This document shows, piece by piece, positions 25,453 through 45,345 of a stretch of DNA of 64,000 bases. A program made the translations under genes and the position numbers. Numbering within the stretch: position 1 is the first letter of the stretch; each line of letters opens with the position of its first letter. The notes beneath the pieces are model-generated. The model was given only the letters and a program-made list of their open reading frames with translations. It was not told the origin of the DNA and made no database searches. Source of the stretch: Escherichia coli O157:H7 (GTDB taxonomy: Bacteria; Pseudomonadota; Gammaproteobacteria; Enterobacterales; Enterobacteriaceae); the NCBI RefSeq assembly GCF_013167455.1, contig NZ_CP038328.1. One strand, 5' to 3'.

Positions 25453-25672
25453 ATTGTACCTTTTTGATTAACCATTGGGGTGAGGGAACCCAATACGTAC
25501 GACACGTCTGTTACCTTAACATAATAACGTGCTTACCCTTTTTTCGAGCCGCCGCATGATACTGCTTTACGTTGACAATGCAATGGTTAATTTTCACGCA
25601 ATCGTTAACCTGGTTTGCTTACGGACTCACAGGGCGTAAACTAGCGCCGTTTTTTTATGTGATGAGAAGAAA

Positions 25673-25918
25673 ATGACCGATCTCTTTTCCAGCCCTGACC
25701 ACACACTCGACGCACTTGGCCTGCGCTGCCCGGAACCAGTCATGATGGTGCGCAAAACAGTGCGCAATATGCAGCCAGGTGAAACATTGCTGATTATTGC
25801 TGACGATCCGGCGACGACCCGCGATATCCCTGGGTTTTGTACCTTTATGGAACACGAACTGGTTGCCAAAGAGACGGATGGACTGCCTTATCGTTATTTG
25901 ATTCGTAAAGGCGGTTGA
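25673..25918 (+). CDS. tusA: Sulfurtransferase TusA
   Basis: 81 aa with the conserved LGLRCPEP active-site Cys motif. Confidence 0.92.
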
Positions 25919-25986
25919 CGGGGGCAGATTGGCTTCGATGCCGCCTTTTCCCCTCACCCTAACCCTCTCCCCAGAGGAGCGAGGGG

Positions 25987-26014
25987 ACCGATCGCGCTCA
26001 ATGTTGCGATCGGT
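25987..26014. terminator. Hairpin between convergent tusA and zntA (9-bp stem ACCGATCGC/GCGATCGGT)
   Basis: Perfect inverted repeat with a 10-nt loop between two convergent stops; only a weak T-run follows on the plus strand. Confidence 0.4.
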
Positions 26015-26019
26015 TTGCC

Positions 26020-28218
26020 TTATCTCCTGCGCAACAATCTTAACGCATTCGCTGTCACCAGCACCGTCGCACCCGTATCTGCCAGCACTGCCAGCCATAG
26101 TCCGGTCATCCCTAACAGCGTGGTGACGAGGAAGATCCCTTTCAGCCCCAGCGCAATAGTGATGTTCTGGCGGATATTGGCGTGAGTGGCGCGTGCCAGT
26201 TCAATCATTTGCACCAGACCGCGCAGGTGGTTATGGGTTAATGCTGCGTCGGCGGTTTCCAGCGCCACGTCTGTGCCGCTGCCCATTGCAATCCCGATGG
26301 CGGCAGCTTTCATCGCTGGCGCGTCGTTAATACCGTCACCGACCATCGCCAGCGGCGCATGTTGATTCAGCTCGGTCACCGCTTTGACTTTATCTTCCGG
26401 CAACAGGCCCGCTTTAAACTCCAGCCCCAGCTCCCCGGCAATTGCCGCCGCTGCGCGTGGATTATCGCCGGTGAGGATCACCCCTTTGACGCCCAGCGCG
26501 TTCAGTTCACTGATGGCAGTTGCAGCATCGGCGCGCAGGGTATCCTGCAATGCAATGATACCCAGCACGTCATCATTACGTACTACCAGCACAACCGTTT
26601 GCCCGGCGCTTTCCAGTTCATTAATCAAACCAGCAAATGCATCAGCGGGATGTTTCCCGGCAGCGCATATCAACACGCGCTCACCGTTAACCTGCGCTTC
26701 AATGCCAGACCCGACCAGCGCCCGCTGTGATTCGGCGGCGGGAATGGCGAGTGCAGCAACCTGTGCTTCGCGCACGATGGCCTGCGCCAGTGGATGCGTC
26801 GCGCCTTGCTCGACCGCCGCCGCCAGTGTCAGCAGTTCAGATTCACTAATACCCGTTGCCGGATGAATCGCGGTAACGCGCGGTTTACCGACGGTCAGCG
26901 TACCGGTTTTATCAAACGCCACCTGGGTAACACGACCCAGCTGTTCCAGCGCCGCTCCGCCTTTAATCAACGCCCCACGACGCGCTGCCGCCGCCAGCCC
27001 GGAGGTAATCGCCGCAGGCGTTGAGATAACTAACGCACACGGGCAGCCAATCAGCAGCAGCGTCAGCCCTTTATAAATCCACTCCTGCCAGCTGGTGGCA
27101 AACAGCAGCGGTGGCACCAGCGTCACCAGCAGAGCGACGGCCATAATCGCGGGCGTGTAAATACGGCTGAAACGGTCGATAAACCGCTCAATGGGTGCGC
27201 GACGCTCTTCGGCTTCTTCGATCAGTTTCAGAATCCGGTCAATGGCGCTGGCACCCGGTTCTGACAGCACTTCCAGCGTTACCAGACGGTCTACGCTGGT
27301 GGCTCCTGCAGGAACTTTATCGCCCGTTGCGCGCTCCACCGGAATAGATTCGCCGGTCAGGGCGCTTTCATCAAAACTGGCAAACGGTGAGAGCAGTTTA
27401 CCGTCGGCAGGCAAACGTCCACCTGCGGCGACTTCAATCACATCGCCAGGGCGCAGGCTGTTAATCGCCACCTCTTCCCGCTCACCGTTACGCAGGCGCG
27501 TGGCGGTTTCTGGTTTCAGCGCCATTAACGCGCTGACCTCTTGACGCGCGCGGCTGGCGGCCCAGCCTTCCAGTCGTTCACCAATCAAAAACAGCAGCAA
27601 CACCATCGCAGCTTCAGCCGTTGCGCCAATAAACAGTGCACCAATAGCGGCTACGCTCATTAAGGTTTCAATGGCGAAGTAGCTGCCGGATTTGATCAGC
27701 CGTAATGCCTGACGAGCAATCGGGTACAGCCCAACCAGCGTGGTCGCGATAAACGCCAGTTGCCCGAACGGATGATTAAATTGCTCCAAACCCCAGCTGA
27801 TTGCCATCATCACGATAAGCGTAATCAGCGGCAGATTCTCTTTCAGGCGCGATGCTTGTGGCTCGTCGGCGGCCTGCTCATCGCGCAGGGAATAGCCCGC
27901 TTTTTGCACCGCAGATTCAACTTGTGCACGGATGTCATTGTCGGCATCAACCACCAGTTTTTCGGTGGCGAACAACACCTGTACCTGATTCACGCCTGCA
28001 AGCTGGCGCACGGCATTTTCTACCTTGCGCGCACAGGCGGCGCAGTCCATGCCGCTGACTTTCCAGCTATAGCGGGTGCCGGAGACGTTTTCAGAGAGAG
28101 TTGGCGTGCTGGAACATGCGCCGTCGCAGCAACAGTCGTTGGCGTTCTGTACCGTGGTTAGCGGTTTGAACGCAGCAAATTGAGGGGCTTTCTTGCCGTG
28201 ATTGTCAGGAGTCGACAT
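26020..28218 (-). CDS. zntA: Zn/Cd/Pb-exporting P1B-type ATPase ZntA
   Basis: 732 aa; N-terminal metal-binding GMDCAAC, transmembrane CPC motif, phosphorylation motif DKTGTLT. Confidence 0.95.
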   Translation of the reverse strand: MSTPDNHGKKAPQFAAFKPLTTVQNANDCCCDGACSSTPTLSENVSGTRYSWKVSGMDCAACARKVENAVRQLAGVNQVQVLFATEKLVVDADNDIRAQVESAVQKAGYSLRDEQAADEPQASRLKENLPLITLIVMMAISWGLEQFNHPFGQLAFIATTLVGLYPIARQALRLIKSGSYFAIETLMSVAAIGALFIGATAEAAMVLLLFLIGERLEGWAASRARQEVSALMALKPETATRLRNGEREEVAINSLRPGDVIEVAAGGRLPADGKLLSPFASFDESALTGESIPVERATGDKVPAGATSVDRLVTLEVLSEPGASAIDRILKLIEEAEERRAPIERFIDRFSRIYTPAIMAVALLVTLVPPLLFATSWQEWIYKGLTLLLIGCPCALVISTPAAITSGLAAAARRGALIKGGAALEQLGRVTQVAFDKTGTLTVGKPRVTAIHPATGISESELLTLAAAVEQGATHPLAQAIVREAQVAALAIPAAESQRALVGSGIEAQVNGERVLICAAGKHPADAFAGLINELESAGQTVVLVVRNDDVLGIIALQDTLRADAATAISELNALGVKGVILTGDNPRAAAAIAGELGLEFKAGLLPEDKVKAVTELNQHAPLAMVGDGINDAPAMKAAAIGIAMGSGTDVALETADAALTHNHLRGLVQMIELARATHANIRQNITIALGLKGIFLVTTLLGMTGLWLAVLADTGATVLVTANALRLLRRR

Positions 28219-45248: not shown

Positions 45249-45258
45249 TCAGTGTAAT

Positions 45259-45326
45259 GTCGGATGCGTTTCGCTTATCTGACCTGGCATCGCGTGTAGG
45301 CCGGATAAGCGAAGCGCATCCGGCAC
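45259..45326. repeat. REP/BIME element (two inverted REP copies) between ugpB and ugpA
   Basis: GTCGGATGCGTTTCGCTTATCTGACC and GTAGGCCGGATAAGCGAAGCGCATCCGGCAC match the REP consensus in opposite orientations. Confidence 0.85.
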
Positions 45327-45345
45327 AGTTCAGGAATTAACCGTA

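Follow-up and report, generated by a model that had tools for sequence, protein, structure and literature searches.

We find that the C-rich sequence lying between the convergent genes tusA and zntA is a copy of BoxC, a multi-copy intergenic repeat of Escherichia coli and related enterobacteria that has also been called PIT and TMECO. Our reading, to which we give a probability of about 0.85 as a whole, is that the C-rich segment is the tusA-zntA copy of this repeat, that the perfect hairpin beside it is a by-product, that the spacer is a deletion derivative of a longer form, and that BoxC sits here as a passive, tolerated repeat. The element is already known at this site, and it is real but ordinary.

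Locus and contents of the tusA-zntA spacer

We analyzed a 64,000-nt stretch of E. coli O157:H7 DNA (the window), in which tusA and zntA form a convergent pair with a 101-nt spacer between them. The gene identities are taken from the K-12 MG1655 locus (b3470 for tusA and b3469 for zntA), which is 99% identical to the window, and O157:H7 genomes match the window with 100% identity over this region. Within the spacer, a three-block C-rich sequence comes first and a perfect 9-bp hairpin after it. The spacer as a whole shows only a modest gain in folding over shuffled sequences, with z-scores of -2.4 and -2.3 on the two strands. The features of the locus are as follows.

25673-25918, + strand: tusA coding sequence (sulfur transfer protein), from the ORF list and the K-12 locus; 5' flank of the spacer
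25943-25999, no strand assigned: full BoxC unit of ~57 nt (left tail, core and right tail), from the 16-copy anchored alignment and the alignment of other copies
25943-25949: BoxC left tail GCCTTTT; family form GCCTKTT
25950-25959, + strand: block 1, CCCCTCACCC; its complement GGGTGAGGGG fits GGGNGAGGG of the TMECO consensus on the - strand
25963-25972, + strand: block 2, CCCTCTCCCC; its complement GGGGAGAGGG is the central purine block
25976-25986, + strand: block 3, GGAGCGAGGGG; its complement CCCCTCGCTCC is the pyrimidine block
25987-25999: BoxC right tail ACCGATCGCGCTC; family form ACCGNYCGYGC
25987-26014, + strand: 9-bp hairpin with its loop at 25996-26005; RNA folding -15.7 kcal/mol
26020-28218, - strand: zntA coding sequence (Zn/Cd/Pb P-type ATPase), stop codon 26020-26022; 3' flank of the spacer

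A 65-aa ORF on the + strand (MASMPPFPLTLTLSPEERGD..., 25929-26126) runs across BoxC into antisense zntA. It is almost certainly spurious, a product of the repeat rather than a gene, and should not be called as a gene in annotation.

The C-rich sequence belongs to the BoxC family

The first-pass annotation of this DNA had described CCCCTCACCCTAACCCTCTCCCCAGAGGAGCGAGGGGA as C-rich with partial dyad symmetry, and we found it as stated at 25950-25987. Its three-block core, CCCCTCACCC-TAA-CCCTCTCCCC-AGA-GGAGCGAGGGG, occupies 25950-25986; on the + strand we read it as three blocks of 9-11 nt, two of them pyrimidine-rich and one purine-rich. One suggestion in the annotation was that this might be a small repeat-family element, with a genome-wide search for further copies as the check. 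The search bears this out, as the C-rich sequence is multi-copy and already catalogued as BoxC / PIT / TMECO. Among 5,426 complete E. coli genomes, the 50-nt core (25941-25990) was located in 5,425, at 91,916 places altogether; single genomes have 1-34 places (median 18; 14 in O157, 18-20 in K-12 derivatives and BL21). When the full 101-nt spacer is used as the query, about the same number of places is obtained, indicating that the repeated part is the C-rich core.

The best matches at other loci lie 3' of fabI, 3' of dusC, between fimH and gntP, and between aaeR and tldD, and alignment of these copies gives the consensus TTTTCCCCTCACCCTAACCCTCTCCCCAGAGGGGCGAGGGGACCGTTCGTGCAC. Both BoxC tails are confirmed in 16 anchored copies. 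The copies at fabI, phnP and tusA, together with that in locus L037, form a subfamily in which the similarity runs on via ...RATRTTG to ~26006. All 18 of the BoxC loci checked in K-12 MG1655 are intergenic. BoxC was reportedly first described beside envM (fabI), and it was the copy at fabI that led us to check the literature on BoxC.

In the literature BoxC is a 56-bp element (range 51-59 bp) with 32-33 copies in K-12. It was described in the 1990s and, in the account summarized in PMC4666352, re-described in 2000 as the PIT (potential intrastrand triplex) element; Holder et al. 2015 (PMC4666352) renamed it TMECO and list 23 MG1655 copies in their Table 1. Number 16 of that table (CCCTCGCCCCTCTGGGGAGAGGGTTAGGGTGAGGGG, type 'A mm', 3,608,684-3,608,719) falls within the K-12 zntA-tusA spacer (3,608,650-3,608,750). 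As BoxC, PIT or TMECO, the element has been on record at this site since the 1990s. The window element shares with the published family its three blocks, loops (type A, TTA), tails, intergenic location and multi-copy state; it differs in having A at 25978, and is missed by the strict regular expression.

The window copy carries one variant base

The loop TAA (25960-25962) makes the window copy type A. Its core is identical to the K-12 copy at the same locus at 36 of 37 positions, and both tails are conserved. The single base by which the two copies differ is 25978, where pairwise alignment shows A in the window and the family consensus G in K-12. Using regular expressions, we found that the strict motif, CCCTCNCCC N3-6 GGGNGAGGG N3 GGGNGAGGG on one strand, is fully matched in the K-12 ortholog and unmatched in the window, because A replaces G at 25978 and breaks CCCTCNCCC. 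Block 3 in the window reads CCCTCGCTC, while both G blocks match the strict motif exactly. Alleles missing the strict motif were counted as mutated TMECOs by Holder et al. 2015 (PMC4666352). We treat the window copy as a BoxC / PIT / TMECO member with one mismatch, since among the sequence-based criteria only the strict motif excludes it.

On the G-rich strand (CCCTCGCTCC...), the A at 25978 is a C to T change, so that a T-G wobble joins the G-A mismatch typical of the family. The window 50-mer is matched at an identity of at least 99% by 2,718 of 5,468 E. coli records, including BL21, O104:H4 and O157; about half of the records thus share the variant, which is not peculiar to O157. The A/G difference would be either an old polymorphism or the result of recurrent change or gene conversion among copies.

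The complement of block 1, GGGTGAGGGG, is the third-strand block in the published G-strand triplex (PMC4666352). By manual pairing, the two purine blocks keep purine-motif triplets (G.G-C, A.A-T, T.A-T) in the window variant; the published triplex CD and NMR work used consensus types, not this variant (PMC4666352). The triplex of BoxC / PIT / TMECO forms in vitro and was undetected by in vivo DMS footprinting (PMC4666352). When single-stranded, BoxC folds into a hairpin, and its G-rich strand goes on, in vitro, to an intrastrand triplex. Our search of the literature on intrastrand triplex repeats returned citing reviews only and no later functional work.

The hairpin is built partly from the BoxC tail

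The perfect hairpin reported in the first-pass annotation is present: ACCGATCGC (25987-25995) and GCGATCGGT (26006-26014) are exact reverse complements, 10 nt apart. Its stem has nine pairs, six of them G-C, and its loop is 10 nt long, or 5 nt with an extra pair. The hairpin lies 69 nt past the tusA stop codon. On the + strand, the stem runs into TTGCCTTA (also UUGCCUUA) or, taken as an 8-bp stem, into TTTGCCTT (also UUUGCCUU); 4-5 of 8 tail nucleotides on the tusA strand are U. The window contains 18 perfect 9-mer arm pairs with loops of 3-12 nt (~11 distinct hairpins), compared with a mean of 3.3 in dinucleotide shuffles, and one such hairpin per 64 kb is therefore unremarkable. These counts suggest that only the position of the hairpin is notable and that the stem itself is within chance.

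The annotation had treated the hairpin as a second, separate feature, which does not agree with the 16-copy alignment. There, the conserved 3' tail of BoxC supplies both the left arm and the loop, so the hairpin does not count as an element of its own; only its right arm is locus-specific and lies outside the BoxC family alignment.

Spacer alleles and the probable origin of the short spacer

We distinguished four spacer alleles in E. coli:

Allele A (window and K-12): full BoxC and the perfect hairpin; the 101-nt query is matched over at least 80% of its length in 5,098 genomes
Allele B (L006): full BoxC, then two REPs, without the perfect hairpin
Allele C (L007): BoxC without block 1, one REP, a 102-aa ORF (464-772, + strand) and a separate strong hairpin adjoining zntA
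Allele D (L008): three-block core absent and only the tail present; two REPs and the same 102-aa ORF (534-842, + strand)

The deletions differ among the four alleles: in three they fall inside BoxC, in one immediately downstream. TMECO loci are described as unusually variable and tied to local rearrangement (PMC4666352), and the varied deletions in or beside BoxC fit this published link with local variability. The 102-aa ORF encodes a membrane-like, hypothetical protein that gave no match in a Pfam search. Among 5,426 complete E. coli genomes, 318 have this ORF between tusA and zntA, as do E. albertii (L009) and L010, a divergent E. coli-like genome; it is missing from the window (26015-26019) and from K-12.

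BoxC is decayed in E. albertii and full in L037, which comes from a metagenome-assembled genome (MAG). We compared the tails of these copies with that of the window:

Window: ...CAATGTTGC GATCGGTTTG
L037: ...CAGTATTGC GGTTTGC GATCGGCCTG
E. albertii: ...CAATATTGC GGCTTGC AATCGGTTTG

This comparison reveals a 7-nt deletion in allele A, flanked by TTGC direct repeats. Because the deletion brings the loop down to 10 nt, the predicted stability goes up; predicted folding gives -15.7 kcal/mol for allele A, whereas the long alleles and outgroups range from -3.7 to -10.5 kcal/mol. We also considered whether the right arm had been made by template switching (quasi-palindrome correction) and rejected this, as the arm is already present farther off in L037 and E. 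albertii. Since both already have the right arm, a plain 7-nt slippage deletion suffices.

Taken from the sequences of these alleles, the long spacer would be ancestral and allele A, with its 101 nt, a deletion derivative; this polarity is based on two outgroup loci and one MAG. The ancestral spacer would have run from BoxC through REP elements and the 102-aa ORF to the separate hairpin adjoining zntA. The deletion between the TTGC direct repeats would then have moved the local right arm to within 10 nt of the BoxC tail, yielding the hairpin as a by-product. On the same model, BoxC would be a structure-prone repeat whose presence in a 3' region is tolerated, with local indel instability as its visible consequence at tusA-zntA. 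The locus history thus offers a small, clear case for the published claim that TMECO motifs mark unstable intergenic sites, comprising the deletions in or beside BoxC, the loss of the 102-aa ORF and the hairpin made by the 7-nt deletion.

The tusA-zntA region in other Enterobacterales

We examined 80 tusA loci from Enterobacterales and found that the convergent tusA-zntA order is old. The length of the spacer ranges from -4 nt, where the stop codons overlap, to >2 kb. The two genes end within a few nucleotides of each other (-4 to +3 nt), with abutting or overlapping stop codons, in Pantoea, Kosakonia and others. Overlapping or abutting stops with spacers of -4 to -1 nt are seen in L056, L059, L062, L063, L067, L073, L076 and L083, at ~2743-2752. 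Spacers of -4 to -1 nt imply that tusA and zntA have no intergenic terminator in those genomes. Since relatives lack the spacer or vary in it, no particular structure is needed between the two genes.

Spacers of Citrobacter and Klebsiella contain REP-type repeats in place of BoxC. In the Enterobacter cloacae complex, BoxC of type B lies directly 3' of tusA, in varied states of decay, and zntA is not adjacent. These tusA-proximal loci, with the two-block hairpins described below, are placed as follows.

L011, L012, L014 and L016: at ~2745-2810
L013 and L071: just after tusA

Shared flanks were considered as a sign of orthology between the Enterobacter and Escherichia copies, and rejected, as the shared bases are the element's own left tail. 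On present alignments, the tusA-proximal BoxC in both groups may reflect either old orthology or a preferred insertion site. In Enterobacter soli and in strain RIT691, the tusA-zntA spacer has only a two-block CCCTCTCCC/GGGAGAGGG hairpin.

Does the spacer terminate transcription?

The first-pass annotation raised the possibility of a bidirectional terminator, which would be made up of the BoxC hairpin and the 9-bp hairpin and serve both genes. Two adjoining stable stem-loops do form on both strands, the position is a convergent one, and 7 of 18 K-12 BoxC loci lie between convergent genes. On the zntA strand, however, the two hairpins (-15.8 and -24.4 kcal/mol) are followed at their 3' sides by CCCCUCGC (also CCCCTCGC) and AAAAGGCGG, which are C-rich or A-rich and contain no U tract. 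A scan for consensus terminators and promoters reported nothing in the spacer. An earlier study of PIT elements, as relayed in PMC4666352, detected neither promoter nor terminator activity and saw RNA polymerase unaffected. Mapping of tusA and zntA transcript ends had been proposed as a check, and Adams et al. 2021 (PMC7815308) provide curated MG1655 Term-seq 3' ends from three conditions; none of these falls in 3,605,771-3,609,217, hence none in the spacer. Further published 3'-end mapping supplements, searched as text, have no entries for tusA or zntA. Low expression of tusA and zntA in the three sampled conditions may explain the absent 3' ends. Given also that many relatives have no spacer at all, we regard termination in both directions as improbable, and the spacer should not be labelled a bidirectional terminator. 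BoxC itself probably neither terminates nor starts transcription at tusA-zntA, and zntA transcripts would have no intrinsic terminator in the spacer.

A one-way role for the hairpin deserves more weight. In this alternative, which is compatible with our main reading, the hairpin and its U-rich tail are a functional intrinsic terminator of tusA and BoxC is a mere neighbor. The stem is stable, with nine pairs and -15.7 kcal/mol; with the stem counted as 8 bp it is followed by the U-rich tail UUUGCCUU; it lies past the tusA stop where a terminator is expected; and a weak match to the Rfam family Hrs13 aligns it with that model's terminator hairpin. Yet the consensus scan does not report it, the perfect stem has a 10-nt loop, and the stable form is found in the short allele only. 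In addition to the lack of a Term-seq 3' end, a Rho termination region is mapped at K-12 3,607,955 (- strand), on the tusA strand and antisense in zntA (PMC7815308). This region is ~700 nt beyond the spacer, corresponding to ~26700-26720 (+ strand) of the window, and would fit with tusA read-through of the spacer or with an antisense transcript. As an intrinsic terminator the U-rich tail on the tusA side is borderline, and we hold a functional tusA terminator here to be possible, at somewhat lower odds than its absence. At most, the derived hairpin and its U-rich tail could serve tusA as a weak intrinsic terminator in one direction, or stabilize its 3' end. Compared with known intrinsic terminators, the spacer resembles them in having a G+C-rich stem-loop after a stop codon and a partly U-rich tail on the tusA side. 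It differs from them, bidirectional ones included, in lacking a U tract on the zntA side and an A tract upstream of the hairpin, in having no mapped 3' end, and in that its stable hairpin is recent, arose by deletion and is missing in the long alleles.

Other identities for the C-rich sequence

The remark in the first-pass annotation that the C-rich sequence is not a REP agrees with our results, as REP patterns (GCCGGATGCGGCG...CGCCTTATCCGGCCTAC type) have no match in the spacer. The REPs noted elsewhere in the window were also found, as a BIME-like REP pair at ~45258-45330 (...tgtcggatgcgtttcgcttatctgacc...gtaggccggataagcgaagcgcatccggca) that is unrelated in sequence to the C-rich element. 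BoxC and REP / BIME elements are alike in being short, G+C-rich, hairpin-forming intergenic repeats, located mostly at gene 3' ends, and both Citrobacter and the long E. coli alleles have REPs between tusA and zntA. Unlike REPs, BoxC has a three-block asymmetric design and no similarity to the REP consensus. It is present in ~20 copies per genome, whereas REPs number hundreds per genome. BoxC is also similar to H-DNA and mirror-repeat triplex motifs in having homopurine and homopyrimidine blocks, in being triplex-capable and in its link to local rearrangement, and the deletions at tusA-zntA overlap or adjoin the motif. It differs from them in its intrastrand three-block design, which is not a long mirror repeat in duplex DNA, and in that its triplex was undetected in vivo (PMC4666352).

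We also asked how well the sequence could be explained as a small RNA or by chance. With permissive thresholds, the Rfam search yielded just two matches, one to ylbH and one, below threshold, to Hrs13. The latter spans the full model at 25937-26020 (+ strand) with 19.7 bits and E = 0.006 in a 161-nt search, and would suit a spacer that encodes a Hrs13-related small RNA, either 3'-UTR-derived or independent. This score is far under the gathering score of 52, the E value becomes 0.077 at a larger search size, and the match follows a generic pattern of two hairpins and a U tail. Moreover, 16 tusA loci, including those of Pantoea, Erwinia, Dickeya and Serratia, have no Hrs13 match at the gathering score. 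We rejected the small-RNA reading on the basis of these loci from other genera, and consider it highly improbable. As for a chance low-complexity C-rich palindrome without relatives, the merely modest folding z-scores speak in its favor, but it is refuted by the copy count, with thousands of near-identical copies across E. coli genomes, and keeps practically no probability. Shuffles of the window give 0 expected matches for a 22-mer from the C-rich part, and the two-G-block motif is expected 0.01 times per window.

Gene orientation around BoxC loci

Of the 18 BoxC loci of K-12 MG1655 (L001, L089-L102), 7 have convergent neighbors, 9 co-directional ones and 2 divergent ones; one of the co-directional loci is inside the pstA-pstB operon. 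Convergent pairs make up ~15-20% of gene pairs. With this share, which is an estimate and not a measured value, 7 of 18 convergent loci correspond to P ~0.01-0.05. This apparent excess of convergent sites could hint at a role of BoxC at 3' ends, beyond tolerance. The published motifs are said to lie upstream of ORFs more often than downstream (PMC4666352), and the apparent convergent excess in K-12 fits poorly with this upstream preference.

A more speculative proposal is that BoxC is preferentially kept between convergent genes, where hairpin- or triplex-prone DNA or RNA would insulate colliding transcription units. The deletion beside BoxC would then have given tusA a new terminator from the repeat's tail, and the tusA-proximal copies in Escherichia and the Enterobacter cloacae complex would reflect selection or target preference. 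We think this unlikely; if true, it would be an instance of terminator birth at a structure-prone repeat.

On the other side of tusA, a terminator-like hairpin, GGCGTAAACTAGCGCC then GTTTTTTTAT, is located at 25633-25648 (+ strand), ~25 nt 5' of the tusA start codon. It sits in the yhhQ-tusA divergent region and could be a 5'-UTR attenuator or a chance match.
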